A stretch of DNA of 64,000 nucleotides from an uncultured Pseudomonadales bacterium (GTDB taxonomy: Bacteria > Patescibacteriota > Microgenomatia > UBA1400 > CAYNMC01), in the NCBI GenBank assembly GCA_964414895.1, contig CAYPXO010000001.1:26999-90998 (forward strand). Reading direction: 5' to 3'. Shown here in pieces: positions 38,030-60,622 of the stretch (positions within the stretch are counted from its first letter, which is position 1; the number at the start of each line of letters is the position of its first letter). A program made the position numbers and the translations under genes. A model generated the notes under the pieces. The model searched no databases and had not been told where the DNA came from. It saw nothing but the letters and a program-made list of their open reading frames with translations.

Positions 38030-38085
38030 GGAGTTAGCTGCCCCTTGAAGGGGAAGATTAGAAGCAAGAAACCTTCGAGAACTCC
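38030..38085. other. putative prophage-host attachment junction inside comM
   Basis: Both the GC-content shift and the divergence of the comM reading frame from the conserved ...LFLDELSEF continuation occur here. Confidence 0.35.
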
Positions 38086-41731: not shown

Positions 41732-41734
41732 CCC

Positions 41735-41779
41735 CTTCCTTGCCCGCCTAAATTTCTGGCAGTCCGCCTCTGGCGGATG
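41735..41779 (-). promoter_or_regulatory. conserved 45-nt leader element containing the palindrome ATCCGCC-AGA-GGCGGAC and the SD
   Basis: Near-identical copy at 57065-57109 upstream of HU; partial copy at 45546-45561 upstream of miaB. Confidence 0.45.
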
Positions 41780-41870
41780 AGCGCGCCATAAAAATTTGGC
41801 GGGTCTGTGTCTCTACTTACTTCCATTCTAACTAATCTTTAAAACAGATGTCAAATCTGGTATAATCAGG

Positions 41871-42292
41871 TTGGGGAAATTGAAGTGACACCCGTCTAAC
41901 TTTCTAGGCGATATTTACCCGTCAAGATTTCAGGCGATATAGCCTGAAATATCGCCGGGCAAGCCTGAAAGTTTGTTGGGAGGAAAGTCCAGACTGCTGG
42001 AAGCAAGGTGGTCCGCCGCAAGGCGGACAGTCCGATGTAATCTCGGACCTCGATAGGACCACAGAAACTAAGTCGGCCCTGTACCGTCTGGTATGGGGTA
42101 CGAGTGAAAAGTCCCCAAAAGGGGAATCCCGACGTTACGTCGGGAGGGTAACCCGCCCTGCAGCAACTTCCGACCGGCTCCCTTGAGGATGCTTCCCCAA
42201 ACCCTGACGTCACGTCGGGGGAGAGCCAAAGTTTGAAGGCAAAGAGAGATGTCACTATAAAACAGAATCTGGCTTACAAATTTTTCCCAAGA
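41871..42292 (+). ncRNA. rnpB: RNase P RNA (bacterial type)
   Basis: P4 strands GGAGGAAAGTCCAGAC (41990-) and ACAGAATCTGGCTTA (42263-) with compensatory changes. GGTAACCCGCCCTGCAGCAA matches the GGTAAAC..CCCGGAGCAA region. ACCACAGAAAC motif present. P1 pairing TTGGGGAAATT / AATTTTTCCCAA. Upstream TATAAT at 41861. Confidence 0.7.
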
Positions 42293-42296
42293 AAAA

Positions 42297-43271
42297 TCAA
42301 GAACCTCTTTTAAGAAGATAAAATTCTGCTACTACTGTCTTTAAAACTAAAAAAGTAGGCAAAGACAAAATCGCCCCTCCTGCTCCTCCCAGTTTAAAAC
42401 CAATAAGTAAACAAATCAAACTTATAATTGGGTTAATGCCAGCCGCATGCTGCATCACTTGAGGAACAACAATATGGTTCTCTAACTGCTGGACAGCAAT
42501 GGAAAGAAACAAAGCCCCTAACGCCAAAGCCGGAGACATAGATAAACCAACCAAAATTGCCGGAATCGCAGCTAGGGTCGGGCCAATATTGGGCACCAGT
42601 TCCAAAAGACCAGCTAAAACTGCCAAAGGAACAGCAAACTCCAAACCTAAAATCTTAAAACCAATATAAGAAATAAAACCAACTATCAACATCAATAAAA
42701 ATTGGCCTCTAACCCAACCGCCAATATGTTTCTCTACTTTATTAACAACTTCCAAAACTATCTTCTCTTTCCTTTTATTGGCAAAAAGAACCTTCAAATA
42801 TTTGGGTAGTCTTTTTCTCTCCAGTAAAAAATAAAAAGTGAGAACCAAAACCGTAAATGTTCCCAGTAAATTAGAAAAAGCGCTCAGTAGGAATTTAAAA
42901 ACACTTCCGGGAACAGCAGCCAATTCAGGAACAATCATGTCCGGCTTAACACTATCGATCACTCCTGTTTCTTTTAAAATATCAGGAAGACTATTTAAGA
43001 AAACAACACTTTGTTCAACAATTGGAGGAATTATAGAATAAAAAGTAGCTACTAAGATAGCAATTATAAAGAGATAAATAAAAAAAATCGCCAGGGATCG
43101 GGGGAGTCTTACTTTTTCTAAAAAATTAACTAAAGACCCAAAAGCAGCGGTTAAGATAAGGGAAATAAAAATAAGAAGCAAAATTACTCTAATTTGGTAT
43201 AAAAACCAAAGAGAAATTAAAAAAGAAACAGTAAAAATGACAGTTCGGTGAGAGATCTCAATTTTCTCCAA
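42297..43271 (-). CDS. AI-2E family transporter (PerM/YhhT-like)
   Basis: Eight TM helices; conserved GLELVPNIGP-type segment. Confidence 0.65.
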   Translation of the reverse strand: MEKIEISHRTVIFTVSFLISLWFLYQIRVILLLIFISLILTAAFGSLVNFLEKVRLPRSLAIFFIYLFIIAILVATFYSIIPPIVEQSVVFLNSLPDILKETGVIDSVKPDMIVPELAAVPGSVFKFLLSAFSNLLGTFTVLVLTFYFLLERKRLPKYLKVLFANKRKEKIVLEVVNKVEKHIGGWVRGQFLLMLIVGFISYIGFKILGLEFAVPLAVLAGLLELVPNIGPTLAAIPAILVGLSMSPALALGALFLSIAVQQLENHIVVPQVMQHAAGINPIISLICLLIGFKLGGAGGAILSLPTFLVLKTVVAEFYLLKRGS

Positions 43272-43327
43272 GAAGATTCATTAATCGTTACCCATCGAGC
43301 AACAATCAATATTTTGATATTTGATAT

Positions 43328-44332
43328 TTAATTTTTGATATTTTTAATATACCATTGCTTAACCACCTTTTCAATCCGCACCTGATAGTTAGAGCTTTCT
43401 ATATCAAACCATTTAACTCCTTTTAGTTTCTTAAAAAAAGTCAGCTGCCGACGGGCTAGACCATGCTCGTTATATTTCCATCGCTGGCTAATTTCTGGTA
43501 AAGTTTTTTTACCTTCAAAGCAGTCCTGCCAAACTCGATAGCCAGTAGCAGAAAAAGAAGGCAGATCAAAACTATGACCTTTTTGCAAAAGCGATTTTAC
43601 TTCTTTCTCTGCTCCTTGTTTGATCCTTTTATCGACTCGTTTATCAATTCTTTGATACAAAATCTTGCAATCTTTTGTCCTCAAGCCCATAATCAACAAT
43701 TTATTAATTTTTAATTTTGAATTGCAGTTTTGAATTTTGAATTTTGAATTTTGAATTTTCTTTGCTATTTCTATTGCTCGAATTAGCCTCCTGGGGTTAT
43801 TTCTATCCGACTCGTTCATCCTCTTTAATCTCTCCGGGTCTACTCTCTTTAATTTTCCCCTCAATTGCTCAATTGCCTCATTGCTCAATTGCTTGCGTAA
43901 TTCCCAATCCGGTTTTAGTCCTAGCGACTCCGCTCCTTCAAGCAGAGCCTTTATCCAAAAACCGCTTCCACCAACTACAATCGGCAACTTTTTTCTTTTC
44001 CAAATATCTTCAATAACAATTTTGGCAAACCTAACAAAATGGGCAACACTAAACTTTTGGTCCGGCTGACAAATATCAATCAACCAAATAGGAACATTGT
44101 CAAGCAACCTATAACCAATCTCGTAATTTTTAATTTTAAGTTTCAATTTGGAATTTGGAATTTGGAATTTGGAATTTTGAGGTATATCCTTTCCTGTCCC
44201 AATACTCATCTCTTTATAGACCTGCCTGGAATCGGCCGAAACAATCTCGCCAGAGAACTTTTTCGCCAGCTTCACTCCCAAAGCGGTTTTTCCCGTTGCC
44301 GTTGGTCCGCCAATAACAAGAAGTTTATTCAT
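43328..44332 (-). CDS. miaA: tRNA dimethylallyltransferase
   Basis: N-terminal P-loop LLVIGGPTATGKTALGVKLAKKF..IVSADSRQVYKEMSIGT. Two internal insertions encoded by heptanucleotide tandem repeats. Confidence 0.8.
   Translation of the reverse strand: MNKLLVIGGPTATGKTALGVKLAKKFSGEIVSADSRQVYKEMSIGTGKDIPQNSKFQIPNSKLKLKIKNYEIGYRLLDNVPIWLIDICQPDQKFSVAHFVRFAKIVIEDIWKRKKLPIVVGGSGFWIKALLEGAESLGLKPDWELRKQLSNEAIEQLRGKLKRVDPERLKRMNESDRNNPRRLIRAIEIAKKIQNSKFKIQNCNSKLKINKLLIMGLRTKDCKILYQRIDKRVDKRIKQGAEKEVKSLLQKGHSFDLPSFSATGYRVWQDCFEGKKTLPEISQRWKYNEHGLARRQLTFFKKLKGVKWFDIESSNYQVRIEKVVKQWYIKNIKN
43707..43750. repeat. heptanucleotide tandem repeat (TTTTGAA)x5 within the miaA coding sequence
   Basis: Direct reading of gttttgaattttgaattttgaattttgaatttt. 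Confidence 0.7.
44144..44178. repeat. heptanucleotide tandem repeat (AATTTGG)x4 within the miaA coding sequence
   Basis: caatttggaatttggaatttggaatttggaatttt. Confidence 0.7.
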
Positions 44333-45516
44333 CTTCTATTTATCATCTTTTCTAGAATTTGCCATCTTCGTTTTTTCTCTTTGTAAGAAACAGGGTCACC
44401 CAGCCTGTAAGCAGCCGTACCTGGGCGAGGGGAATATTTGGCAATATAGGCTTTTTCAAAACCGACTTGCCTGCAGAGTTTAACCGTATTTTCAAATTGT
44501 TTTTTAGTTTCTCCAGGAAAACCAACAATAATATCAGTGCCGATTTTAATATCCGGAATCCTCTCTCTAATTCGTTTAATTAAACCAAGATACTTTTTGG
44601 CCGTGTATTGACGGTTCATTTTTTTTAAAATCTCATCATCGCCAGATTGAGCTGGTAAATGTAAATAGCGGTCAATTTTTGGTAACCTTATCGCCTCAAT
44701 AATATCGTCAGTTAAGTCTTGAGGGTTGGAAGTAATAAAAGAAATCTTCTCCAAGCCCTTAATTTTATGCAATTCTCTCAGAAGTTTCGCAAATGGAGTA
44801 ATCTCAGTATTCTCAGCAAAATTCTGTGATCTCAGTGTTGCAGTTTTTCCATTCGAGCGGTCTCCCAACCTCTTCCCATATGAATTAACATTCTGTCCCA
44901 GCAAGGTTACATGCTTATAGTCGCGCTTAACCAATTCTTTTACCTCACAAACAATCTCCTCGAATGGACGGGAGACTTCCCGACCCCGGCCATAGGGAAC
45001 AACACAATAGGTGCAAAAATTATCACAACCTCTCATAATCGGCACCCACTTGCCCGCCGAAGCATCCCGAACGGAACGCGGCTGAATAAGCCGATGTGGA
45101 GTTTCGAGAGCGGAGGCGGGAGCATCAGACAAAGATTTAACATCCTTAATCAAATCTTGAAGTTTAACAAACTCGTCCACCCCTGGTAACATCTTTTTTA
45201 ATCTCGAAAGACTATACCGCAACATGCAACCAGTAAGAATAATTTTGGGCTTATTAACTTTTAAGTTTTTCGCTATAGCTTTTAGCTTGTAGCTTTTAGC
45301 TTGTAGCTTGGTCAAGTTTCTAACCTGACCGATCACCCGATCTTCCGCACTTTGTCTCACTGAACAAGTATTAATAACCACCACATCAGCTTCTTCAACT
45401 AACTTTGCTGGTTTGTAACCCTTCTGTTCATAACCTGCAGCAATTTTCTCCGAATCCGCCTTATTCATCTGACACCCATAAGTCTTAATATAATAGGTTC
45501 TTGATCTACTTGACAT
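44329..45516 (-). CDS. miaB: radical-SAM methylthiotransferase (MiaB-like)
   Basis: N-terminal MTTase domain YIKTYGCQMNKADSEKIA. Radical SAM CxxxCxxC (CDNFCTYC). Adjacent to miaA. Confidence 0.65.
   Translation of the reverse strand: MSSRSRTYYIKTYGCQMNKADSEKIAAGYEQKGYKPAKLVEEADVVVINTCSVRQSAEDRVIGQVRNLTKLQAKSYKLKAIAKNLKVNKPKIILTGCMLRYSLSRLKKMLPGVDEFVKLQDLIKDVKSLSDAPASALETPHRLIQPRSVRDASAGKWVPIMRGCDNFCTYCVVPYGRGREVSRPFEEIVCEVKELVKRDYKHVTLLGQNVNSYGKRLGDRSNGKTATLRSQNFAENTEITPFAKLLRELHKIKGLEKISFITSNPQDLTDDIIEAIRLPKIDRYLHLPAQSGDDEILKKMNRQYTAKKYLGLIKRIRERIPDIKIGTDIIVGFPGETKKQFENTVKLCRQVGFEKAYIAKYSPRPGTAAYRLGDPVSYKEKKRRWQILEKMINRR
45284..45320. repeat. tandem repeat (TAGCTTT/TAGCTTG heptamers, 14-mer x2.5) within the miaB coding sequence
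   Basis: tagcttttagcttgtagcttttagcttgtagcttg. Confidence 0.65.
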
Positions 45517-45892
45517 ATAAAGTTATAAGAGTTATTAAATCTGCCTGCCCGCCTAAATTTCCTGAATGAAACACGGCGGAATACGCCGAGTGAAATATCA
45601 AGAATATTTGGTGGGGCAGCCAAAGGTCTTAATAAAGTAAGTCTTATTCATAGCCTATTTTACCATCTCTTCTCTAAAAACCTGAGAGAAATGGAGAGAC
45701 TAAAAGAGAAGTAATAATAATTGCGGAAAGATATCCAGGTCAGTTTAACCTAAACAAAACAAATTATTTGCCAAAAAACATTTCTTGCTTATTACCAGCT
45801 GAAATTATTAAAACCTCTCAAATCAAAAAGAGTTAATACTTGTTATTAAATTTCTCTTATGGAATACTAAAATGAGGGCAAATTGAATATTA

Positions 45893-47062
45893 TTGAATAT
45901 TATGGAAGCAAAAAATCCAGCAACTCAAAACCAAAATCTTCCTCCAACAGGCCAACAAACACCACCTCTTACTACCTTGCAACCACAACCTGATGTACAA
46001 AAAAAAGATAACAAATTTTTTAAAATTTTTATCTATGTTTTAATTAGCGTATTTCTTGTGGGTTCTTTGGTTTTTGGTTTTTGGTTTTATCAAAAAGAGA
46101 AAGTAACTAAAGAGCCTGAACTTTCACCAGCTCCATTTACTAAACCTACTCCGAGCTCATTAACAAACTCCACAACTAAGCCAGATAGTCTGATGTCCGA
46201 ATGTAAATCTAATGAAAAAAAACATGTCAATAACTATATAGGGCTTTCTTTCTGCTACCCATCAAATCTGGAATATTATAGAACAACTAAAGAAGGAGCT
46301 TTTTCAGGTTCCATAAATGAATACTTCAAAGAGTCTGGCTCAAATAAAAAAGACCTATTCAATTTTTATTTTATAAGAAAAAAATTTGATAAAGATAAGC
46401 ATTATGAACAGGGCTGGGACATCAAACAAATTTCATCAAACCTAATTATTAATCCAATATACGCCATGACAGCTCCCAAAGATTACCTTATAAAAAATAT
46501 AAAGGAAAAGAAATTTAATGATAATACTTACTACACTTACAGATACAGCTCAGGTAAAAACAATTACTCTGTATATATTTACCCTAGAAATGATTGCTAT
46601 TATAAATTTACCTTCAATGAGGATAATGAAGCATTAATAAAAAGGGGCCTCAGTTCAGCAATATACCATGACAGTGTATATTTAAATATTTTTAAATTGG
46701 GAAAGACTACTAGCAACTCCAGGATAAATCTGGAAGAGTCATATGTTCCGCTTGGATGGGAATATGAAAATACCAACAATGAAACAAAACTATTCTATAA
46801 AGGAAAAGTAGGAGAGGCTACTGTAAAAATTATAGCAGATGGTAAAAGCGAGCTTTATAAATACTTAAAAGAAAGGTGTGATTATCGCACTGGCCGTTTC
46901 AGCTATGATACTCCTGATAATGAAATTGAAGAAATAAAAAATAAGTTTGGTTGCGAAAAAGTCAATTATTTCCGAACAGTAGTTATTAGACCTAAAACAG
47001 CTAGGCTGTTCTTTCTAAATTCACTTTTCATAACTTTTCAAGTTCATCTTCAAAGCATATGA
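45893..47062 (+). CDS. secreted or membrane-anchored hypothetical protein
   Basis: N-terminal TM helix after a Q/P/T-rich segment. The 3' end overlaps repeat copy A, so the real stop may lie earlier. Confidence 0.45.
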   Translation: MNIMEAKNPATQNQNLPPTGQQTPPLTTLQPQPDVQKKDNKFFKIFIYVLISVFLVGSLVFGFWFYQKEKVTKEPELSPAPFTKPTPSSLTNSTTKPDSLMSECKSNEKKHVNNYIGLSFCYPSNLEYYRTTKEGAFSGSINEYFKESGSNKKDLFNFYFIRKKFDKDKHYEQGWDIKQISSNLIINPIYAMTAPKDYLIKNIKEKKFNDNTYYTYRYSSGKNNYSVYIYPRNDCYYKFTFNEDNEALIKRGLSSAIYHDSVYLNIFKLGKTTSNSRINLEESYVPLGWEYENTNNETKLFYKGKVGEATVKIIADGKSELYKYLKERCDYRTGRFSYDTPDNEIEEIKNKFGCEKVNYFRTVVIRPKTARLFFLNSLFITFQVHLQSI

Positions 47063-47082
47063 TCGTGAGTCAATCTGGTGAA
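47021..47082. repeat. ~62-bp repeat copy A (..TTCAAGTTCATCTTCAAAGCATATGATCGTGAGTCAATCTGGTGA)
   Basis: 58 of 62 positions identical to copy B at 49299-49360. Confidence 0.7.
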
Positions 47083-47103
47083 GTAAAAACTGCTAAATTA
47101 GGA

Positions 47104-47526
47104 TTACTTTTCTAAAATTTTTAAAAACTCTCTTGGAGTAACAATTTTAATATTTTTAAAACTTTTTAACTTCAAAAGATGCTTATCACCAGAAATAATC
47201 CATTTTGCTTTACCTTGCAAAGCACAAGCTAAAAACTTATCATCAGCTGGATCCTCAACAATAATTTCTAATTTCTGTTTTGGCTCAATTATTGCGCAAT
47301 CCTTTTCTAAAGACTTTTTTACTCTTTTTATCTTTTCTTCTGATAACTGATATCTTCTTTTGATTTTTGGCCGCTTTAAAACATCCAAGATCTCATCAAT
47401 AACCTTCTGCGAAACTACCAAGTTGATCTTTTTTGTTTGCCAGAGTTTGAGAATTTTTCTTGGGGCTCCTTTGGGAGAAATTAGTCCGCTAACAACTACA
47501 TTTGTATCCAAAACCACCTTGCTCAT
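47104..47526 (-). CDS. PIN-domain toxin (VapC-like)
   Basis: VLDTNVVV PIN N-terminal motif with a conserved acidic residue pattern; overlaps the upstream antitoxin gene. Confidence 0.7.
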   Translation of the reverse strand: MSKVVLDTNVVVSGLISPKGAPRKILKLWQTKKINLVVSQKVIDEILDVLKRPKIKRRYQLSEEKIKRVKKSLEKDCAIIEPKQKLEIIVEDPADDKFLACALQGKAKWIISGDKHLLKLKSFKNIKIVTPREFLKILEK

Positions 47527-47804
47527 TTACCTCTCACTTTATCAACTGCTTCAGCCACATCGTTCTTAACTTGAGAAAAAGGAACATTTTTGTTTTCCTC
47601 GGCAATCGCAAAAAGTTCTCGAAAACGTTCTTCTCTTGCCCTCTCTGCCTGTCTACTTAATTCCAGCAAATCCTCTAGGTTAATCAAAACTGCCATTGGC
47701 CGACCCATTTTTTGTAGTAAAAACTGCTGACCTTGATAATATACCTGGCTTAAAAGCTCAGAAAAATTATTTCTTGCCTGACTGACGCTTATTGTTCTGG
47801 TCAT
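47523..47804 (-). CDS. Phd/YefM-family antitoxin
   Basis: TISVSQARNNFSELL is the typical Phd/YefM N-terminus; 4-nt overlap with the PIN gene. Confidence 0.65.
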   Translation of the reverse strand: MTRTISVSQARNNFSELLSQVYYQGQQFLLQKMGRPMAVLINLEDLLELSRQAERAREERFRELFAIAEENKNVPFSQVKNDVAEAVDKVRGK

Positions 47805-47868
47805 ATTTTATCTCCTTTCTGTCTTTAGAATAGCAATAATTGTACAATTTGTCAATTTTGTATTTTTT

Positions 47869-48303
47869 TCAGCCTGTAGGCTTTTCATTAACTAAAAAAG
47901 GATTAAAATTGATCTTTAATAAATTTCTAATCGGTACAAAGAGTAGTCTGGGTAAATTTCTCCACTCAAACCAATCCCATCCGATACATTTATCAGGCTC
48001 TTTAATTTTTACTTTACCAGATTTATAGTCTGCTATCACAAAACAAGTAATATAATGCTTACCTTCTTTTTTGAAAATATCATTAGTATAAGGACCTTGT
48101 TTAAGGTTTTTTATCTTTATTCCTGCTTCTTCTAAAACCTCTCTTTTGGCACAACTAAAAACATCTCCATTAAAATCTAGGTGCCCGCCCGGAAAATTCC
48201 AATCACCCTCTCCATGAGAACCCTTTCTCTTGCCCATCAAGACTTTATTATCTTTTATAACAATTACGCCAATGCCTATTCTTGGGTATTTGTTGTTTTT
48301 CAT
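47869..48303 (-). CDS. NUDIX hydrolase
   Basis: Nudix box GGHLDFNGDVFSCAKREVLEEAGI. Confidence 0.7.
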   Translation of the reverse strand: MKNNKYPRIGIGVIVIKDNKVLMGKRKGSHGEGDWNFPGGHLDFNGDVFSCAKREVLEEAGIKIKNLKQGPYTNDIFKKEGKHYITCFVIADYKSGKVKIKEPDKCIGWDWFEWRNLPRLLFVPIRNLLKINFNPFLVNEKPTG

Positions 48304-48324
48304 TGTTTTATCTCTTGCCAGAAA

Positions 48325-49212
48325 TCATTTTTTGATATTGATTACCATCGTCGCTCCAATAAAAGCCAAAATAGAACCAGCGATAAAACCCAAAGTCAAT
48401 CTTTCTCCCAGCATTAAAGCAGACCAGATAAAAGCAGAAACAGGCTGAAGATAAAAAACCATAGAAACAATAATTGGGTTGGCTTTTTTAATTGCCAGCT
48501 GGTAGACAATATAATAGCCGGCTGTGCCAAGTATCCCCACATAAACTAAGCTTGCCCAGCTGGCGAAAGAAACATTTTTAAGCAAACCCAAATTGCCTTC
48601 AGTTTCTGACAAAGCTAAGAAACTTTGAACAATGAGAGTTGTGGCAATAAAAATAGTTGTCAAGGCCAGCGGAGAAAAGTATTTTTGTAGTTTTTTGGAA
48701 AAAACTGAATACAAAGAATAAGAAAAAACAGCAATAAATACTAAAAGGTTGCCTAAAAGATCGCCGCTAAAAACAAAGCTTTTCCCCAACACAGGCAGAA
48801 GAACAATTAACAAAACTCCAATAAAACCAATAATAACTCCTAAAATTTTTTTTAAACTCATTTTTGTTTTGAGAATAAAATATGAAGTGATAGCAACAAT
48901 AATTGGCACTGCAGCATATAACATTTGGGAAATTGTAGCGGTAGTCTTTCTAACACCTAGGGCAAAAAAAGTAACATTTGAAGTAGCCAATAAAGAAATC
49001 AGAACAGCCAGTTTTATTTTTTTTAAGTTTAACTTTTTTTCTTTGGATAGAAATAAAGGGCCTAAAACTAAGCCGGCCAAAATAAACCTTAAAAATATAA
49101 AGGTAAAAGGAGTTATCTGTTTTAGGGCAATTTTAGAAAATGGAGGAACCCCACCACCGATAAAAGCTGCTAATAAAACTAAAACTATTGATGTAAAAAT
49201 ATCATTTCTCAT
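48325..49212 (-). CDS. EamA/DMT-family transporter
   Basis: Ten TM helices in two EamA-like halves. Confidence 0.6.
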   Translation of the reverse strand: MRNDIFTSIVLVLLAAFIGGGVPPFSKIALKQITPFTFIFLRFILAGLVLGPLFLSKEKKLNLKKIKLAVLISLLATSNVTFFALGVRKTTATISQMLYAAVPIIVAITSYFILKTKMSLKKILGVIIGFIGVLLIVLLPVLGKSFVFSGDLLGNLLVFIAVFSYSLYSVFSKKLQKYFSPLALTTIFIATTLIVQSFLALSETEGNLGLLKNVSFASWASLVYVGILGTAGYYIVYQLAIKKANPIIVSMVFYLQPVSAFIWSALMLGERLTLGFIAGSILAFIGATMVINIKK

Positions 49213-49298
49213 CTTCTCTTATATTTCATCAGTCATAACATTACGCCTGATTTTATTTTATCCGAGAAATTTAATAAAGACTAGCTATTTTTTCGAAT

Positions 49299-49360
49299 TG
49301 ACTTTTCACAATTCTTCAAGTTCATCTTCAAAGCATATGATCGTGAGTCAATCTGGTGAG
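49299..49360. repeat. ~62-bp repeat copy B
   Basis: See copy A. A degenerate third copy (GATCGTGGGTCAATC) lies at 50153-50172. Confidence 0.7.
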
Positions 49361-49384
49361 CTAAAGAGAGCAAATTTGTAAAAT

Positions 49385-50032
49385 TTATTGAAGTTTTAAG
49401 ATTCTAAGCTTTATTTTTTTCTTCTCAAGTTTAAACTGAAAAATCACTGGAAAGTCAAAATTATTTTTAATATAAAGATTTTTTTCTTTGCTTTCCTTAC
49501 TTCCTTCTTCATAAGAAATTAAAGTCCCGTATTCTCTTGGCACACCGGGAATAGGGGAGAAGTCGTGATTTCTTTTGGCAATTACTTCCAATCCTGCCTC
49601 ACTAGCCGTCCAGTTCATCAAAGAAGCCAAGTGGCAAACTCCATTACCATGAATTCCATAGGCTTTTTTAAAACCCTGTTCGGCGGAAAATTGGCTGCCA
49701 ACAGTCATAACCAGCCCTTTTTCATACTCTGGCAAAATATTTTTATGAAAAGCAAAAACCGCCCCGGAAGGCAAGACAAAAGAAAAATCATCACTAATCT
49801 TGCCAGCAAAATAGTAAAGGTTCAAAAGAATGTTGTCAGTAAAAATCTCGTTTATTTCTTTATTTTCATCTCTGTTTGTCAAATCAAGGCTGTTTTGAGC
49901 CAAAAATCCTTTCTCTCTATCGGCAACTTGGTTTATAAGCTCGCTTTGAGGAATTGGTGTTAATAAAACCTTCTTCTGAAAAGGGAGACCTGGTAGTAGA
50001 AAAGAAAGCAAAGAAACAACAACTGTTTTCAT
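49385..50032 (-). CDS. VanW-like protein
   Basis: Signal peptide; GIHGNGVCHLASLM resembles the VanW G-G-G-V-C core. Confidence 0.4.
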   Translation of the reverse strand: MKTVVVSLLSFLLPGLPFQKKVLLTPIPQSELINQVADREKGFLAQNSLDLTNRDENKEINEIFTDNILLNLYYFAGKISDDFSFVLPSGAVFAFHKNILPEYEKGLVMTVGSQFSAEQGFKKAYGIHGNGVCHLASLMNWTASEAGLEVIAKRNHDFSPIPGVPREYGTLISYEEGSKESKEKNLYIKNNFDFPVIFQFKLEKKKIKLRILKLQ

Positions 50033-50183
50033 TTTAAAAATTAAAAACCTCTGTTTTTAACCAGAGGCAGGCTTTTTATTCTTCTCCTATTTTCTCAAAT
50101 CATTCCCTAATTTTCAATCCCTGCTTGCTTTTATATCTACTCTAATAAGCCTACGATCGTGGGTCAATCAGAGTAACTTAAAT

Positions 50184-51662
50184 TCACTCGGGAGTAAAAC
50201 GGTAAACACCAAAATAACTTTCTTTCTCTGGTTTGTAGAATCGTGCCTTTTCTATAAGACAATCTTCTAGGCCTCCTTTATGCTCACTGCGGCTGACAAA
50301 ATAAACCGGCTTTTTAAAAGAAAATTCTTCTATCTTTCCTTTTAATAGCTGTTTATCCAAATAAACTACTTTGATTCTTGGATTTTCAAAATAATAAGCA
50401 AAAAGAGCATTCTCTGGATTGCCAGCATCCAAACGAACGCCCAGGACGATAGGTTGTTTCTCTGCTTTTTCTTCCAAAAATTGTCTCACTTTGTCCAAGC
50501 CATAACCGGCAGTGTTCCCGGTAACATACTCCTTTTTTTGAGAAAAGGCAGGGATAAAGTTGTTCAACAAGCTAAAGTAGGCAAGAGGCTTGAAAATCAA
50601 TAAAAAAGTCACATATAAAGGAAAAAATAGTGCAAACAGTCCAAAAAAGCCAAGAAATTTTTGCTTTATAAAAAGAAAGGCGACTGCCAAAGCAGCTAAA
50701 ATTGAAGTCAGTGGTAAAAGAGGCATTATATAACGAGGATTAAGATTCCTAGCAGTTAATATTGTTATTGCCAAACTCCCAAAAAACCAAAATAAAAACA
50801 GATAATATCTTTCCTTAATTGCCTTAATTAAGCCAAGAATTATCAATAAAAAAACTGCTGGTGTTAGCTGCCAAAAACTTATTTTTAAAAAAGCTGAAAT
50901 ATTGCCCCACCATTTATCAAAAGGAAAAAAAAGCAATTCTTTAATGGTCAAATTAAAACGATTGCTCATTTTAATAATATTAAGAAAGTCAGGCTGGATA
51001 ATAAGAGGCAAAATAAAAAAGAAAGTAAAAAATAAAATCAAAGCCAGTGCCCAAAAATAATTTTGTTTTTCTTTAATTTTTCTCTCTTTCAGAAGAAAAA
51101 AACCCAAACTAACAACTGTTAATAAAAAAAAGATAAATGTGTTTGATTTAATAAAAAGACCAATTCCTAAAATACTACCAATAAAAAAAGAGATAACTAA
51201 ACTTCTTCTTTTAAAATAAAGGCTTAAAAGATAAAAACTCCAAATATTAACAGAACAAACAGCACTCTCCATTAAGGCCTGTCGATCAAAAAAGACAAAA
51301 ATTGGCACGATAATATAAATAAGCGGTGCAATTAGTAAAAAAGGCCAAGGTAAAAAAAGAGCACTTAATAAATATATCCCTAATACCCCTAATCCTCCTA
51401 AGGCCACTGACACCAATCTCCCGGCAAGCAAAGGATCAGGAATTATTTTATTTGTAATTCCAAAAACCCACATCAAAAAAGGCTGCTTACCGTCATAAAG
51501 GGAATAAAAAGCAAAACCAGGAATATTAATCATCCGCTGCCCCCAATCAAGGTAAATCGCTTCGTCATTAAAAATCGGCAGTAAGGTAAGGTTAACAACT
51601 CGTACAAATAAAAAAAGAAAAAAGACTAAAAGAAGCAAAAGAAACTTTTTATTGCTTATCAT
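50184..51662 (-). CDS. PMT/ArnT-family (GT39/GT83-like) membrane glycosyltransferase
   Basis: More than ten TM helices; N-terminal LPIFNDEAIYLDWG matches the D-E loop of PMT/ArnT enzymes. Confidence 0.55.
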   Translation of the reverse strand: MISNKKFLLLLLVFFLFLFVRVVNLTLLPIFNDEAIYLDWGQRMINIPGFAFYSLYDGKQPFLMWVFGITNKIIPDPLLAGRLVSVALGGLGVLGIYLLSALFLPWPFLLIAPLIYIIVPIFVFFDRQALMESAVCSVNIWSFYLLSLYFKRRSLVISFFIGSILGIGLFIKSNTFIFFLLTVVSLGFFLLKERKIKEKQNYFWALALILFFTFFFILPLIIQPDFLNIIKMSNRFNLTIKELLFFPFDKWWGNISAFLKISFWQLTPAVFLLIILGLIKAIKERYYLFLFWFFGSLAITILTARNLNPRYIMPLLPLTSILAALAVAFLFIKQKFLGFFGLFALFFPLYVTFLLIFKPLAYFSLLNNFIPAFSQKKEYVTGNTAGYGLDKVRQFLEEKAEKQPIVLGVRLDAGNPENALFAYYFENPRIKVVYLDKQLLKGKIEEFSFKKPVYFVSRSEHKGGLEDCLIEKARFYKPEKESYFGVYRFTPE

Positions 51663-51809
51663 CAGTTTCTACGAGGAAAAAGCATCTTTATACCACTTGT
51701 TAAAAAAGCAATCACAAAGCGGAAAAGATCTCCTGCTTTTCTGCCTAAAAACTGCAAAAAATCTTCCCCAAAATAGCGCAAATGACGCTGTTCTTCTTCT
51801 CCCAGCATT

Positions 51810-52028
51810 TTATTTTATCTTAGCAGAATCTGTTGATTCTAACCTTTCTTTTTCTAATTCTTGAATCTCATTTTTCAATCTTTCTATTTCTTCTTTCATC
51901 TCCTTAGTTTTTCTAAGATGCCAACCATAGCCCCACAAACTATAAATAGCCAAAAAAAGGGCGCACAAAAAAATAATCAGCCAAGCAATCGAGCTATTAT
52001 TCCTCCTTTTCATATCCAACTTTATCAT
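51810..52028 (-). CDS. FtsB/DivIC-like septum formation initiator
   Basis: Single TM helix followed by a Leu-zipper coiled coil (EIERLKNEIQELEKERL). Confidence 0.45.
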   Translation of the reverse strand: MIKLDMKRRNNSSIAWLIIFLCALFLAIYSLWGYGWHLRKTKEMKEEIERLKNEIQELEKERLESTDSAKIK

Positions 52029-52046
52029 ATCATAAAAAAGGAGAAA

Positions 52047-52865
52047 TCAGCTGGAGGCAGAGGAATATTTGGTCAAAGAAAAGCGCCATAGTTTTAAAGA
52101 GAGAAAAAATAGTGTTATTGAAATAAAAAAAGCGTAAATCAACCATTGCCAAGACAAAAGTCCCATCAAGGCCTTAGCAGGAAAAGTAAAAACAACCCCA
52201 ATAGGAACAACAAAAGTCAAAAAAGCCCTTACCGAGTCAATATAAATATCAACCGGCACCCGAGCCATCAAAGATAAATCTCTGTAGATCAAAATCGCAT
52301 GATCAACTTCTGTAGTAATCACCCCAATTGAAGCAACTAGAATATGAACAGCCGTAACAATCAAAAAACCACAAAATGTTATCAAGAGAAATAAAAGAAA
52401 GTTTATAAGTGAAATAGCCATATTTTGTTTAATTAACGCCCAAATAATAACCATCAACAGGGGTAAATCTAAGATATCAGTTCTATTAGTCAAAATTTGA
52501 AAAAGAGGACTGAGTGGTTTAACCAAAGCCAGGTCAAATTTACCGGAAACAACATCTCCTCTAAACCAATAAATTCCCCGGAAAAAAAGCTGACCCAAAA
52601 TATCCAAAAGATTAAAAACCAAAAAGAAAACTATCATCTGTTCCAAATTATAGCCAGCTAGGCTCTTTGTTTTTCCCAAAACAACCAAAAGTAAAACCAG
52701 AAAAAAGGCAAAGCGAATAAATTTGCCAAGAAGGTACATTAATGAGGCTCCTTGAGTAAATAAAGGCGTCTGGATTGACAGAATGGTAGTCTTTAGCCAA
52801 ACTTTTAAGTATTTCTTAATATTCATATCCCAGCCGCAGTATAGGATTTTAGTCCTCTCCGCCAA
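52047..52865 (-). CDS. ABC-2 family transporter permease
   Basis: Six TM helices; paralog of 55040..55828 (shared ...WRFSLTKYSSASS / ...WQFNLKHYSSASS C-termini). Confidence 0.55.
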   Translation of the reverse strand: MAERTKILYCGWDMNIKKYLKVWLKTTILSIQTPLFTQGASLMYLLGKFIRFAFFLVLLLVVLGKTKSLAGYNLEQMIVFFLVFNLLDILGQLFFRGIYWFRGDVVSGKFDLALVKPLSPLFQILTNRTDILDLPLLMVIIWALIKQNMAISLINFLLFLLITFCGFLIVTAVHILVASIGVITTEVDHAILIYRDLSLMARVPVDIYIDSVRAFLTFVVPIGVVFTFPAKALMGLLSWQWLIYAFFISITLFFLSLKLWRFSLTKYSSASS

Positions 52866-53665
52866 AGTAAATTAACCAAAAACTTAAGAATAAAAATCCA
52901 AAGAGCCATCACAGTAAAACCGGTAATAATCCCCGTTCTATCTACTCTTCCTAAATAAACTTGCAAGGGAAAGAAAATAAAATAAGAAGAGGGTAAAAAT
53001 CTCAAAAAATTAAAAACTAGTCTTGGCAGGATATCCAAAGGCAATAGGCCTCCAGAGAAAAACCTGAGAAGGACTGTAAATAAAAACCTGGCCGGCCAGC
53101 CGTTATGTTCCGGATACCAAAAAGTAGTTAAACTTATAATTAGGCTTAAATAAAAATAGACAAAGATGCTCAAAATAGAAAAACCAATAAAACCAAAAAG
53201 ATAAAAAAGGTTTGTTTGGAGAAAAAAAGGTGGCTTCAACAGCCAAAAAATCAAAGCTAACTCAAAAATAAGAAAGACCAAATTAAGTAACTTGTCCGAA
53301 AAGTCTCGACTAAGCCAATAAAAAAAATAATTAATCGGTTTTAATAAACAATTGCTTAACTTGCCGGTGCTAATCTCGCCGGCAACATCAATGCTACGGG
53401 AGCCTAAAACCAAAGAATGAAGGAGTGAACTAGCTAAAATATAGGTCAACATCATTTCCTCATCATAGCCACCAATATTTTGATTAAAACGATAGACGGC
53501 ATACCAAAAAAAGTAAGCACTTAATCTTAAAATTACTGTTCTTATTCGCCAAACAACAAAGTTAAAACGATAAACAAGGCTCTCTTGCCAAGAAATTTTG
53601 AAAATTTGGAAGTATTTTTTAAGCATAATCTTTGCCGGTAAAGAGCTCGCGGATGATATTTTCAA
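52823..53665 (-). CDS. ABC-2 family transporter permease
   Basis: Paralog of 55975..56775 (..LWRRGLKSYTAAGI / ..LWRRGLKVYSTYGG). Confidence 0.55.
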   Translation of the reverse strand: MKISSASSLPAKIMLKKYFQIFKISWQESLVYRFNFVVWRIRTVILRLSAYFFWYAVYRFNQNIGGYDEEMMLTYILASSLLHSLVLGSRSIDVAGEISTGKLSNCLLKPINYFFYWLSRDFSDKLLNLVFLIFELALIFWLLKPPFFLQTNLFYLFGFIGFSILSIFVYFYLSLIISLTTFWYPEHNGWPARFLFTVLLRFFSGGLLPLDILPRLVFNFLRFLPSSYFIFFPLQVYLGRVDRTGIITGFTVMALWIFILKFLVNLLWRRGLKSYTAAGI

Positions 53666-54602
53666 TCGAAGCCTCAGAAATGTTTAAATCTTTAACTGAA
53701 TAAGAGTGCAAAAGCTTGGCAGCTATCTTATTGGACTCTTCCTTTTTTACCTTTAAAACTACCCGAGGAAAATCAAACTCAACCACCTCGCCCATCTCTG
53801 CCAATCTTCGCAAGTTGATTTCCTTTCCTAAGGTTATTTCCAAGAGCTTGTGGTCAGCATATCTTTCTATCACTTCAGTAAGCTGGCCATCAAAAACAAT
53901 TTTCCCCTTGTCAATAATAATCACTCTCTTGCAAAGCTCTTGAACATCTCCCATATAGTGAGAAGTCAAAATTATTGTTGACTTAAATTCTTTATTATAA
54001 TTTTTGATAAAATCCCTGATTTTTTTTTGCATGACCACATCTAATCCAATCGTCGGTTCATCCAAAAACAAAACTTTAGGGGAGTGAAGTAGGGCAGCAA
54101 TCAGTTCACATTTCATCCTCTGGCCAAGCGACAGTTTTCTTACCTGAACATTGATAATTTTTTCTATTTCCAAAAGAGCAACCAACTTATCCAAAGTTTC
54201 CCTAAACTTTTCATCCGGAATTTCATAGATCTCCTTGTTAAGAAGAAAAGTTTCCATTGCCGGTAAATCCCACCAAAGCTGGTTTTTTTGCCCCATTACA
54301 AGAGAAATCTGCTTAAGAAAGTCATGTTTTCTCTTCCAAGGATCAAAACCCAAAACAGATAGCTTTCCCCCATCAGAGTAGAGAAGTCCGGAAAGGCATT
54401 TTAAAGTAGTTGTCTTACCCGCCCCATTAGGTCCGATAAAACCAACAAGTTCCCCTTTCTTTATGGAAAAAGAGACTCTGTCAACCGCTTTAACTTCCTC
54501 ATATTCTCTTTTAAACAAAGACTTAAGAGAACCCACCAAGCCTGGTTCTTTTTTATGAACTTTGTAGTATTTCTTTAAATTTTTAACGTTAATGACGCTC
54601 AT
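53619..54602 (-). CDS. ABC transporter ATP-binding protein
   Basis: Walker A GPNGAGKTT, signature LSLGQRMK, Walker B LFLDEPT. Confidence 0.8.
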   Translation of the reverse strand: MSVINVKNLKKYYKVHKKEPGLVGSLKSLFKREYEEVKAVDRVSFSIKKGELVGFIGPNGAGKTTTLKCLSGLLYSDGGKLSVLGFDPWKRKHDFLKQISLVMGQKNQLWWDLPAMETFLLNKEIYEIPDEKFRETLDKLVALLEIEKIINVQVRKLSLGQRMKCELIAALLHSPKVLFLDEPTIGLDVVMQKKIRDFIKNYNKEFKSTIILTSHYMGDVQELCKRVIIIDKGKIVFDGQLTEVIERYADHKLLEITLGKEINLRRLAEMGEVVEFDFPRVVLKVKKEESNKIAAKLLHSYSVKDLNISEASIENIIRELFTGKDYA

Positions 54603-54955
54603 TAATGAATAATATTATAAATCTTCCATCCTTCAACACTATTTACTAAATGATAAATCAATAAAGCAGAGTGGGATTTTTTCCCTTTAAAGAAGTAGGT
54701 TTCTTTAGAAACCACAACAGTAGCTAATTTATCTTCACTACGAAAATCGATTGCCAAAATTTTCGTTTCCAGCTTATCAATCGAAAGATAACCATGCGAG
54801 GAAGAACCAGCAATTTCATCAATCTGAGTGGAAAGAAAAAGTTTTCTATCCTTTTGCTTTACTGCTCTTTCTCTCAATAAAAATATCTCCTTTATCTCCC
54901 TATTTACCCTCATTCTCTCAAGTATACTATAATCAAAGTTATAATTCACTCCCAT
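54602..54955 (-). CDS. hypothetical protein
   Basis: 117-aa ORF. Confidence 0.35.
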   Translation of the reverse strand: MGVNYNFDYSILERMRVNREIKEIFLLRERAVKQKDRKLFLSTQIDEIAGSSSHGYLSIDKLETKILAIDFRSEDKLATVVVSKETYFFKGKKSHSALLIYHLVNSVEGWKIYNIIH

Positions 54956-55039
54956 AACACTCCTTATAACAACAATTTTCGAAGAAACGTAAAAAAAAAT
55001 TATTACTCAATGTGGCGATCGCAGCACGAAATAATAATT

Positions 55040-55828
55040 TTATGAGGAGGCGCTGGAGTAATGCTTGAGATTAAACTGCCAGACCTTATGGGAAAGAAAA
55101 AGCAAGAAAAGGGATATAAAAATTCCGTAAAAAACCGTTGGCCAAGAAATCAAACCCAATAAAGTCTTAACCGGAATAGTAATAACAAAAGCTAAAGGAA
55201 ACACAAAAAAGAAAAAGTGTTTTAAAATTGGCGGCAGGATATCTAAAGGAATTACTGTCAAACGCAGAATTGGATGGAAAAATTCATAGATATTTGATAT
55301 ATTGCCGAGCCAAAAAACCAAATTAAGGCTCATAAACCACAAAGAATAAACAATGACAATAGAAAAAACAAGCATTGCTAAAAAAAGAGCAAAATTTAAA
55401 AAACTAATTTCTATCTTTGAGCTAGTTGCTACTACGAGCAAGACCGAACAACCCATCAAGAAACGTAAAAGAGTATGCCAAGAAAATTCCCTTAAAGAAA
55501 CATAAAATTGAGAAGAAAGTGGCTTGACTAAGACTAAATCTAGCTCTCCGTAATAAACCAAGCTAGCGAGCTTTTTGAAATTGTGACTGAAAAAAACTTT
55601 GGTTAAAGAGTTAATTACCAAAAAGGTAGCAGCCAAAACAAGAAGCTCCTCATAGTGCCAATTACCCACTCTTTGGATGTGACCAAAAATGAATTTGTAT
55701 AATAAAAGATACACTAATCCCCATAAAAAATTAATAAAAGATATAAGGAAAAAGTTGAAGCGATATTGACCTTCTCTTATCAAAGAGTTTTTTATAAAAG
55801 AAAGGTAAAGTTTAAAATATCTTTTCAT
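55040..55828 (-). CDS. ABC-2 family transporter permease (paralog)
   Basis: See 52047..52865. Confidence 0.5.
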   Translation of the reverse strand: MKRYFKLYLSFIKNSLIREGQYRFNFFLISFINFLWGLVYLLLYKFIFGHIQRVGNWHYEELLVLAATFLVINSLTKVFFSHNFKKLASLVYYGELDLVLVKPLSSQFYVSLREFSWHTLLRFLMGCSVLLVVATSSKIEISFLNFALFLAMLVFSIVIVYSLWFMSLNLVFWLGNISNIYEFFHPILRLTVIPLDILPPILKHFFFFVFPLAFVITIPVKTLLGLISWPTVFYGIFISLFLLFLSHKVWQFNLKHYSSASS

Positions 55829-55974
55829 CGTCTCTTATACTTCGAGCGGGTCTCGAGTTGTGTCGAGAGAGAAGTCGAGAAGCTTGCCTCAGATTTATCG
55901 AAGAGTTCTCGACTCACTGCGTTCGCTCGAACAATAAAAAACTTACCTCACTCACTCGTCAATTTGTTCCTATT

Positions 55975-56775
55975 TTATCCTCCATAAGTTGAATAAACTT
56001 TCAAACCTCTTCGCCACAAACTCCTGGTTAAGAACAAAAAAATTACAATCCAAAAAAACTGTATTGAAAAAGTCAGTAAAATCTCTCTAACTCCAAGATT
56101 TCCCAAAAAAATCTGTGTAGGAACAAAAACTTCAAAACGAAAAGGCAGAAACAAAGAAATCTTATAAAGACTTTCTGGTAAAAACTGCAGAGGAAAAAGC
56201 GTCCCTCCAAAAAGTAAAAGCAAAAAATCTGTCAGATTATTCAACCAACCAATCTCATTAAACCAGAAAGCAGACAGGCCAATGATAAGCTTAAACAAAA
56301 AAAATAAAATAAAGCTAAAGCTTATAAAAATAAAAAATAAGGATATATCTCTCCAAGAAAAATTTAAACTACCCAAAGAAACAGGGTAAAAAAGCAAAAA
56401 AAGGCCAATTACAGGAAATAGGAAAATTAAACGTAAAATTTTATAGGCTAGCTCATATATAAATCTTAAAAACAAAACTCTGGCTGGTCTCATTAAGTAA
56501 AAAGAGCTCAATTTACCAGTAGAAATATCAACTTGCAAAGCATGATCAGGATGGGTAAAAACAACGGCACGAATAAACATCACCAAAAGATAATAAACAA
56601 ACATCGAAGAGATGCTATAACCAGCAATCTTCTCTTGCCTAGCAAAAGCCGCCTGCCAGAAAAGAAGCATAATAGTCGGCGGAACAACATCCCAAAAAAA
56701 CCAAATAACACTTCTTGCCCTATAGGCAAAAACTAGCTGGAGTATGGTTTTAAAAAAGGCCCAATACTTTCTCAC
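55975..56775 (-). CDS. ABC-2 family transporter permease (paralog)
   Basis: See 52823..53665. Confidence 0.5.
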   Translation of the reverse strand: MRKYWAFFKTILQLVFAYRARSVIWFFWDVVPPTIMLLFWQAAFARQEKIAGYSISSMFVYYLLVMFIRAVVFTHPDHALQVDISTGKLSSFYLMRPARVLFLRFIYELAYKILRLIFLFPVIGLFLLFYPVSLGSLNFSWRDISLFFIFISFSFILFFLFKLIIGLSAFWFNEIGWLNNLTDFLLLLFGGTLFPLQFLPESLYKISLFLPFRFEVFVPTQIFLGNLGVREILLTFSIQFFWIVIFLFLTRSLWRRGLKVYSTYGG

Positions 56776-57051
56776 TTAGCGAACTTTCTTTTTTAAATTC
56801 TTAGAAACTATAAAACGGACCGCCCGGTGGGCTTTGTGGACTACTGGTGTTGGGTCATCAACGCTTTTCCTTCCTTTTTTGTCGGCCACCTTTTTAACAA
56901 CAAAAGTTCCGAAACCGGAAAGAACGACTTTCTCTCCTTTCCTTAAAGCTTTTCTAATTTCCTCAAGCATCACCTCAACTGCTTCTTTAGAAGCCTTTTT
57001 GGTTAAGTGAGCCTTCTTGGCTACAATCTCAATCAAATCTGATTTTTTCAC
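56776..57051 (-). CDS. hup: HU/IHF-family DNA-binding protein
   Basis: GFGTF beta-arm motif and typical length; MKKSDLIEIVA N-terminus. Confidence 0.8.
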   Translation of the reverse strand: MKKSDLIEIVAKKAHLTKKASKEAVEVMLEEIRKALRKGEKVVLSGFGTFVVKKVADKKGRKSVDDPTPVVHKAHRAVRFIVSKNLKKKVR

Positions 57052-57064
57052 TCTAGTTTCACCT

Positions 57065-57109
57065 CCTTCCTTGCCCGCCTGAATTTCTGGCAGTCCGCCT
57101 CTGGCGGAT
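57065..57109 (-). promoter_or_regulatory. second copy of the conserved 45-nt palindromic leader element
   Basis: CCTTCCTTGCCCGCCTGAATTTCTGGCAGTCCGCCTCTGGCGGAT differs from the 41735 copy at one position. Confidence 0.45.
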
Positions 57110-57205
57110 CAAATTTCTCAGCGTTACTCACCTCTCATTCGTTTCCAAATACCACTTCTGTAACCCTGAAGCACAAAACTTCACTGAGATACTGAAAAAT
57201 TAATT

Positions 57206-60479: not shown

Positions 60480-60554
60480 CGGGGTATGGTCTAGTGGCTA
60501 TGATAGGCGCATGGGGTGCGTCTGACCCCAGTTCGATTCTGGGTACCCCGACCA
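60480..60554 (+). tRNA. tRNA-Pro (anticodon GGG)
   Basis: Acceptor stem CGGGGTA/TACCCCG with C1-G72 (characteristic of bacterial tRNA-Pro). Anticodon stem-loop GGCGC-AUGGGGU-GCGUC. T-arm CCCAG-TTCGATT-CTGGG. Discriminator A; CCA encoded. Confidence 0.75.
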
Positions 60555-60622
60555 TCCGACTCTCCCGACGTAGCGTCGGGATCGCTCAGGGCAAGCAAAA
60601 GGGAATAAAAAGGAGGATAAAG

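Follow-up and report, generated by a model that had tools for sequence, protein, structure and literature searches.

Intergenic repeats of the MITE (for miniature inverted-repeat transposable element), repetitive extragenic palindromic (REP), enterobacterial repetitive intergenic consensus (ERIC) and Correia types, when co-transcribed with genes, form RNA hairpins that can be bound or cut by RNase III, altering neighbouring expression (PMC2649163, PMC2229807, PMC10969869). Of non-coding repeats and post-transcriptional control in Patescibacteria, which cannot be grown alone and have tiny compact genomes, very little is known. Here we describe a hairpin element found upstream of the HU gene (hup), of a membrane-protein gene and of miaB in a 64,000-nt stretch of contig CAYPXO010000001.1 (assembly GCA_964414895.1), the whole of which is hereafter called the window. 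The element is a small palindromic dispersed repeat, so far undescribed in Patescibacteria. On balance, it is probably lineage-restricted, a few Microgenomates-like members of the group having recently gained copies of it in the transcribed leaders of genes unrelated to each other. A repeat landing exactly at ribosome-binding sites would show that leaders are exchanged between genes even in streamlined genomes.

The starting point was a 45-nt sequence that an earlier note on this DNA had reported as common to the leaders of the membrane-protein gene and hup, an observation borne out by our searches: the 45-mer was found at 41734-41778 (0 mismatches) and 57065-57109 (1 mismatch), with 0 matches in 100 shuffles. 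A repeat search lengthened the pair to 52 nt (41727-41778 and 57058-57109, 96% identity), lying directly 5' of the two start codons. Both 52-nt copies are sense to minus-strand genes and their 3' end is a purine-rich ribosome-binding site. The 16-mer core TGCCCGCCTAAATTTC gave three matches in the window against 0.11 expected, the third one at 45546-45561. The genes downstream of the window copies code for an MS-channel-like membrane protein, for HU and for a MiaB-type radical-SAM enzyme, respectively. The parts of the three copies and their surroundings are as follows.

41825..41854, minus strand: promoter-like TTGACA-N18-TAGAAT (11/12 matches), upstream of copy 1
41804..41813, minus strand: 5' flank of copy 1, GAGACACAGA, shared with the metagenome loci L015 (GAGAGCAACAGA) and L016 (GAGGGCACAGA)
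41743..41803, minus strand: copy 1, complete hairpin, CCCGCCAAAUUUUUAUGGCGCGCUCA-[UCCGCC AGA GGCGGA]-CUGCCAGAAAUUUAGGCGGG
41728..41742, minus strand: 3' flank of copy 1, CAAGG and purine-rich ribosome-binding site AAGGGGGUGA
41720-41722, minus strand: ATG start codon of the membrane-protein gene, placed according to database protein P0121 and relatives
57124..57136, minus strand: stranded ribosome-binding-site-like sequence GAGAGGUGAGUAA (GAGAGGTGAGTAA; with one further base GAGAGGTGAGTAAC, 57123-57136), about 70 nt 5' of the site now used
57110..57123, minus strand: degenerate or deleted 5' arm of copy 2, CGCUGAGAAAUUUG, with about 13 nt (UAUGGCGCGCUC) missing as compared with copy 1
57058..57109, minus strand: copy 2 (hup leader), sharing 96% identity with copy 1 and made up of the tip hairpin, the 3' arm, CAAGG and a ribosome-binding site
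57049-57051, minus strand: GTG start codon of hup
45546..45615, minus strand: copy 3 (miaB leader), a diverged hairpin of full length that keeps the arms, has another mid-stem and another tip, and lacks the tail of CAAGG and ribosome-binding site

The 45-mer is a fragment of a rod-like hairpin repeat of 65-105 nt, in which the 5' flank GAGRGCACAGA is followed by the 5' arm CCCRCCAAAUUYUYAUGGCGCG, a variable tip, the 3' arm CGCUGCCAGAAAUUUAGGCGGG, CAAGG, the purine-rich ribosome-binding site and the start codon. CAAGG stands 3' of the hairpin in five of the six leader copies, the exception being miaB. The arms are inverted (CCCRCCAAAUUU / AAAUUUAGGCGGG), and the hairpin base pairs CCCRCC-AAAUUU with AAAUUU-A-GGCGGG, including a conserved A.C mismatch and a bulged A. 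When folded, a full copy is predicted to form a rod hairpin ending 5 nt 5' of the extended ribosome-binding site. In four of the five full copies folded alone, the minimum free energy (MFE) structure is a single long imperfect hairpin, the different one being that of L016, where CCACC pairs with GGUGG of the ribosome-binding site. The values obtained for the other four were:

copy 1: MFE -31.1 kcal/mol, z -2.26
L015 copy: MFE -45.5 kcal/mol, z -2.31
L019 copy: MFE -24.7 kcal/mol, z -1.06
miaB copy: MFE -24.9 kcal/mol, z -3.26, with 0/200 shuffles as good

The tip is variable, with three unrelated tip hairpins and one 37-nt tip insertion tolerated across the copies. Copy 1 and the hup copy carry UCCGCC-AGA-GGCGGA; the metagenome copies have CGAUCAUYAGUCG, forming a CGAU/GUCG stem in L016 and L019, and the same stem plus an additional 37-nt hairpin in L015; the miaB copy has CGGCGUAUUCCGCCG, with a CGGCG/CGCCG stem. 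The palindrome GTCCGCC-TCT-GGCGGAT, previously interpreted as an operator, is the variable tip of a longer hairpin, replaced in other copies. Similarly, the alternative pairings of CCGCC with two GGCGG tracts, formerly proposed to act as a switch, turn out to be the arms and local sub-structures of the same long hairpin. A covariation check, also suggested at that time, gave no compensatory changes, 0 pairs being altered on both sides in the model-based alignment of five sequences. No covariation is claimed here, because the miaB copy retains its helix only with a one-base shift of register; the predicted structure is based on thermodynamic modelling and on an independently maintained hairpin, not on covariation statistics. 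The predicted probability of the ribosome-binding site being unpaired ranges from 0.26 to 0.56 and is inconsistent between copies, and no internal pocket or loop is conserved among them.

Copy 1 (nhmmer E=1.2e-22, the copy itself being in the training set of the profile) reaches about 35 nt farther 5' than the 45-mer, to about 41813. This additional part is common to the metagenome copies, whose 5' block CAGACCCACCAAATTYTCATGGCGCGCTCA is also found in copy 1 at 41779-41813. The promoter-like site at 41825..41854 places copy 1 inside the 5' untranslated region (UTR), about 15 nt from the likely transcription start. The membrane-protein gene had been assumed to start at GTG 41731; P0121, the database protein of this gene, is 230 aa long, relatives begin ATGTCTAAC, and the most likely start is ATG 41722, GTG 41731 (the mechanical open reading frame start) falling within the ribosome-binding site. 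The start of the gene is hence shifted 9 nt downstream. In relatives of the membrane-protein gene (71% identity), the promoter and the beginning of the leader, AAGTAGAC, are recognisably orthologous and run directly into the ribosome-binding site without the hairpin; the element is absent from the orthologous promoter and leader of locus L021.

The hup copy is recovered by nhmmer with E=9.9e-8, covering profile positions 53-94 only, and in pairwise alignment it equals copy 1 from the tip hairpin through the ribosome-binding site save two substitutions. Its 5' arm is degenerate and about 13 nt short, so the long hairpin cannot form; its covariance-model score is 15.9 bits, with many broken pairs. 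Reading towards the gene, the order is stranded site, element, second ribosome-binding site and GTG. The stranded site corresponds to the site in use, with its spacer, in L013, the closest relative, which has GGAGGTGAGTAATATG before hup, and is probably the ancestral hup ribosome-binding site, displaced by an insertion that would have brought or recreated its own. The rny-hup spacer is 154 nt long here as against 26-80 nt in the five relatives read, and hup starts with GTG here and with ATG in all five. Gene order recA-recX-rny-hup is conserved in relatives, and the RNase Y gene lies directly upstream of hup; no element was present in the rny-hup spacers of relatives with HU 70-81% identical. 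GAGGTGA stands on both sides of the hup copy. Extended ribosome-binding sites of the form GGAAGGAGGTGA are common in the window, so part of the similarity between the ribosome-binding tracts of the copies may be convergent. When the hup spacer was compared with L016 for homology 5' of the hairpin, only a 16-nt ribosome-binding-site-like match was obtained, which is at chance level.

Before miaB, where only the core had been seen, a full-length diverged copy is present (45546-45615), in which the 5' box of 10 nt and the 3' box of 16 nt are both preserved exactly. A nhmmer profile built without the miaB copy finds it at E=0.012 over profile positions 11-83. Its arms are perfect and its middle is about 50% diverged; the sequence of the mid-stem differs and still pairs, and the tip gives a weak terminator-like match.

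A further candidate lies on the opposite strand, within a gene divergent from the membrane-protein gene.

41872..42293, plus strand: RNase P RNA gene, bacterial class A (Rfam RF00010, 95.1 bits, E=8.7e-30)
41887..41964, plus strand: candidate fourth, diverged copy in the extended P3 helix of the RNase P RNA (18.6 bits, E ~0.018)

The score of 95.1 bits is just under the gathering score of 100, so that annotation at the default threshold would miss the gene. A 119-aa open reading frame (ORF) beside copy 1, at 41896-42255 (minus strand), which overlaps the RNase P RNA gene from the other strand, is probably spurious. The P3 match is the best non-training covariance-model match in the window with filters off. 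The region (approximately 41890-41980) appears to consist of two nested hairpin units, each formed by UUUC(N)AGGC/GCCUGAAA plus CCCG.../...GGG, and is predicted to fold as a 91-nt rod (-38.5 kcal/mol, z -4.78). The Rfam alignment puts a 70-nt insertion in P3, a helix of only 17-33 nt in L021 and L026. The local alignment of its 3' arm to copy 1 was equalled in 8/2000 shuffles, and the P3 copy is sense to its transcript. In a filters-off covariance-model search of 70 kb of related loci, only short GC-hairpin noise was found; since this background goes up to 15.8 bits as compared with the 18.6 bits of P3, the P3 extension is rated as a probable, not an established, fourth copy of the leader element.

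Other small hairpins were observed in the same RNA. A 24-nt inverted match (92%), containing the palindrome CCCGACGTNACGTCGGG, connects 42126-42149 (plus strand) in the RNase P RNA with 60559-60582, just after tRNA-Pro (60480-60554), and CCGAYNNNAYRTCGG-type stem-loops cap several rnpB helices in L021 and L026. The CCCGACGTNACGTCGGG and CCGAYNNNAYRTCGG stem-loops may represent a second, REP-like mini-hairpin family.

Outside the window, a scan of metagenomes with 21 nt of the element's 3' half as the probe retrieved six loci from three samples, corresponding to three distinct elements. These have their 5' arm and flank in common with copy 1; their 3' arm recurs in every copy. The genes that follow encode a type IV pilin-like protein (N_methyl motif) or a small secreted protein without assigned function. 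The proteins of L015 and L016 are 78% identical and both loci carry the element; homologs that are 62-65% identical to the L015 protein lack it. Homologs of HU and of the membrane protein place the window among Microgenomates-like Patescibacteria, with Beckwithbacteria, Chisholmbacteria, Collierbacteria and Curtissbacteria among the named matches. A scan with TGCCAGAAATTYAGGCGGGCA of the genome collection, which does not include the host genome, gave 2 matches, i.e., the chance expectation for this length, both in proteobacterial metagenome-assembled genomes and with no extended match. No family was assigned to the element in Rfam 15, either by the gathering scan of the whole window or by relaxed scans of four regions, one of which yielded just the RNase P RNA gene; on the element itself there was noise only (flavi_FSE at E=0.04, snoRNA, miRNA). 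A phage or plasmid origin was considered and discarded: of two viral-contig scans, one gave four chance matches and the other none, and blastn against phages and plasmids gave no match.

As to the surroundings of the metagenome copies, the ~400-nt regions upstream of the small secreted-protein gene in L015 (9330-9640, minus strand) and L016 (2460-2800, minus strand) share more conserved blocks besides the hairpin, among them GTTGTAGTACTAATGYACGGATTAGCA, CTTCTTCTTCTTGTCAATAGRGACGCGAAAATTGCG and the palindrome CCTGCCTGCCGGCAGGCAGG. Orphan GGAGGTGA motifs also occur upstream of this gene in L016, and in the homologous loci L032 and L034 the gene follows a two-component system.

These data show directly how alike the sequences are, that they form one family, which hairpins are predicted for them, where and in which orientation they lie, and that they are absent at orthologous sites. 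We consider it somewhat probable that the element is a dispersed repeat, because the orthologous sites are empty, the genes are functionally unrelated, partial and diverged copies exist, one copy probably resides in a non-coding RNA gene, and the arms are conserved while the core varies. As in MITEs, there are multiple dispersed copies with empty orthologous sites: three clear and one probable in 64 kb and three distinct ones in metagenomes, with the hup and membrane-gene sites empty in relatives. For the way in which it spreads, and for what it may do to the stability or translation of mRNAs, we infer the following course of events. The repeat would enter leaders in sense orientation, abutting or splitting the purine-rich ribosome-binding tract, either by transposition of a MITE- or REP-like unit or by short-patch recombination anchored on ribosome-binding-site microhomology. 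The latter would fit well the hup copy, which may be a partial, very recent copy of the membrane-gene one (tip, 3' arm and ribosome-binding site), and whose insertion would have displaced the ancestral ribosome-binding site and turned the start codon from ATG into GTG. Once transcribed, a full copy would set a stable rod hairpin before the ribosome-binding site. Its most likely effect would be passive, the 5' stem-loop hindering 5'-end-dependent decay or marking a processing site as co-transcribed Correia and ERIC repeats do; any such role in mRNA stability or processing is purely inferred.

Several observations weigh against a simple spreading repeat. No exact target-site duplication was found; purine-rich sequences resembling ribosome-binding sites border the copies on both sides and, apart from hup, show only a loose similarity. 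GAGRGCACAGA and CAAGG, the conserved flanks, extend beyond the inverted arms and have no complementarity to each other, as is not typical of a MITE. Among the 33 ORFs scanned (36-64 kb) we found no transposase with matching ends, just an integrase of the phage type at 36.8 kb. In all five independent leaders the copy is in sense orientation and its end is 20-31 nt away from the start codon, and this orientation and fixed position hint at selection at the RNA level instead of neutral insertion. In addition, the arms are about 95% identical between organisms whose single comparable protein is 55% identical, and perfect in the diverged miaB copy, which argues for arms under constraint, be it for mobility or for factor binding. 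Orientation, position and arm identity can also be explained by a protein-bound cis-regulatory leader, a reading that we hold to be rather unlikely, in which the hairpin base would bind a trans-acting protein coordinating or processing abundant mRNAs (HU, pilin, membrane and secreted proteins), maybe with the same module in P3. It would account for copies that, in five independent leaders, are strictly sense and keep one position immediately 5' of the ribosome-binding site, for arms much better conserved than tip and surroundings even in the miaB copy, for the high identity across organisms with diverged proteins, and for a P3 copy likewise sense to its transcript; HU and pilin are typically very abundant proteins. 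Candidates for the binder would be HU itself, a ribosomal protein, an RNase or an RRM protein such as the 97-aa RNA-binding one encoded in the window (61525-61818, plus strand; an RRM protein is also encoded in L032). On the other hand, relatives lack the element in the orthologous leaders, so it is no long-standing conserved part of a regulon. The long hairpin cannot form in the hup copy, miaB belongs to a gene set without obvious coherence, and 0 pairs are changed on both sides in the five sequences. A doubtful extension of the idea would see in the hairpin base a protein-recognition module common to the P3 helix and to leaders of mRNAs ranking among the most abundant in these ultra-small bacteria (HU, major pilin, membrane and secreted proteins), i.e., a mobile post-transcriptional expression cassette or regulon element with its own ribosome-binding site, captured by genes for high or coordinated expression. 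If the hairpin does bind a factor, it would offer a first handle on the coordinated expression of pilin and HU in these bacteria.

A shared cis-regulatory RNA or repressor site was the original interpretation of the 45-mer. What remains of it is a non-chance, hairpin-forming leader element shared by unrelated genes and recurring in other genomes; the operator and the riboswitch-like switch are not supported. In a riboswitch- or thermometer-like device, CCCACC of the 5' arm would have a choice of two partners: the 3' arm, so that the ribosome-binding site stays free, or GGUGG of that site, which would then be occluded, with CUGCC/GGCGG paired in a local hairpin. The L016 fold given above, the pairing of CGCU with GGUG in the hup leader and the 0.26-0.56 probability of an unpaired ribosome-binding site are all compatible with such a device, which is nevertheless quite improbable: the tip is exchangeable and replaced wholesale, with no conserved internal loop or pocket, most copies strongly favour the long hairpin, in which the site is open, the pairing that would block the site amounts to only 4-5 bp and varies from copy to copy, Rfam 15 gave no match, be it at gathering or at relaxed thresholds, the hairpin of the miaB copy is not followed by any ribosome-binding site, and neither compensatory pairs nor a consistent occlusion of the site were observed. 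That there is no element, and that a leader fragment was simply duplicated by chance in the host genome, we judge very improbable. The three clear window copies do lie within 16 kb on one strand, with none in the other 48 kb, and the hup copy does resemble a partial copy of copy 1; against it stand the near-identical arms before different genes in contigs of other samples and organisms, and the diverged, structurally intact miaB copy. The earlier note had expected a chance duplication to leave only these copies, with no conservation in related genomes, and the picture obtained is mixed, the element being absent from the orthologous hup and membrane-gene leaders of relatives and present before other genes in other Microgenomates-like contigs. 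Finally, an operator bound by a dimeric repressor shared by hup and the membrane gene is scarcely credible, despite the perfect 7+7 palindrome (GTCCGCC-TCT-GGCGGAT) in two window leaders, and is largely refuted by the non-conservation of the palindrome, which is absent in the L015, L016, L019 and miaB copies, where other hairpins take its place. Moreover, the promoter predicted for copy 1 is ~40 nt or more upstream of the palindrome, there is no adjacent regulator gene, and the two palindrome-bearing copies derive from one recent duplication (52 nt, 96%) and are hence not independent evidence.

Two other candidate explanations were tried and rejected. An intrinsic terminator or attenuator does not agree with the lack of a sense-strand terminator-like site over copies 1 and 2, where the hairpin is followed by CAAGG and a purine tract and by no U-tract. 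A leader peptide starting from the AUG in the 5' arm (AUGGCGCGC) would have no ribosome-binding site, varies in frame and length between copies, and is absent in the hup copy.

Other features of the window were recorded. A second dispersed repeat of 82 nt (47018-47099 and 49296-49377, 87% identical) occupies intergenic or gene-end positions in the minus-strand block, one copy following a PIN toxin gene and the other lying between VanW-like and EamA genes; a PIN/Phd toxin-antitoxin pair is located at 47104-47804 (minus strand). Short tandem tracts of the (TTTTGAA)n type are found at 43681-43759 and 44100-44178 in the miaA/miaB coding region (minus strand), with an inverted match at 62586-62622 in a radical-SAM gene at 62.6 kb. 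A gene of the phage-integrase family (36837-37925, minus strand) stands beside a 317-aa ComM/Mg-chelatase-like ORF (38058-39011, minus strand) devoid of the C-terminal part of its 512-aa homolog in L026; this combination points to the insertion of an integrative element in comM. At 36487-36777 there is also an ORF with a weak likeness to a phage tail chaperone.

Compared with described systems, the dispersed hairpin repeat that we favour is reminiscent of the Correia elements (CREE/NEMIS) of Neisseria, which are ~100-150-bp inverted-repeat intergenic elements, in many cases transcribed together with the gene that follows; like the present element, they are found in some and missing from others of a set of related genomes. 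The Correia RNA hairpin can be bound, cleaved or protected by RNase III, with altered expression of the neighbouring gene (PMC2649163; PMC2229807). Correia elements end in inverted repeats, come with a TA target duplication as well as an integration host factor (IHF) site, can create promoters and are present in hundreds of copies (in part, PMC2649163). The element described here has no sequence similarity to them, no target duplication was found, flanks extend outside the arms and all known copies are sense. The proteobacterial ERIC/IRU and REP/BIME/REPIN families are likewise imperfect palindromes, transcribed in intergenic regions, with a conserved stem, variable loops and nested or clustered copies, and ERIC- and REP-type repeats can stabilise upstream or downstream mRNA segments (in part, PMC3184786, PMC3116915). 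REPs are 20-40 nt long, usually 3' of genes and linked to REP-associated tyrosine transposases (RAYT), unlike the present element, which is 5' of genes at the ribosome-binding site. A REP/RAYT (REPIN) system was in fact rejected on the 65-105-nt unit, on its position 5' of genes, and on finding no Y1 transposase domain in the 33 ORFs scanned, the same 36-64 kb part of the window containing no RAYT or IS200/IS605-type gene.

At the level of possible effects, the nearest parallel is with the 5' stabilisers of Firmicutes (STAB-SD of cry3A, ermC and aprE leaders), in which a 5' stem-loop or a strong site could protect from 5'-end-dependent decay. Those leaders and the element have in common a stable 5' UTR stem-loop and/or a strong ribosome-binding-site-like sequence, and the host has an RNase Y gene; the stabilisers are single-gene leaders and not a repeated family. 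For the candidate P3 copy a precedent is reportedly given by the short tandemly repeated repetitive (STRR) sequences of cyanobacteria, said by Vioque (1997) to sit in peripheral helices of rnpB without destroying the RNase P RNA. The STRR are tandem heptamers in another helix, unlike the nested P3 hairpin, whose homology to the leader element is moderately supported (E ~0.02); alike in both would be a genome repeat residing in a helix of the RNase P RNA, P3 being longer here by about 70 nt of element-like sequence.

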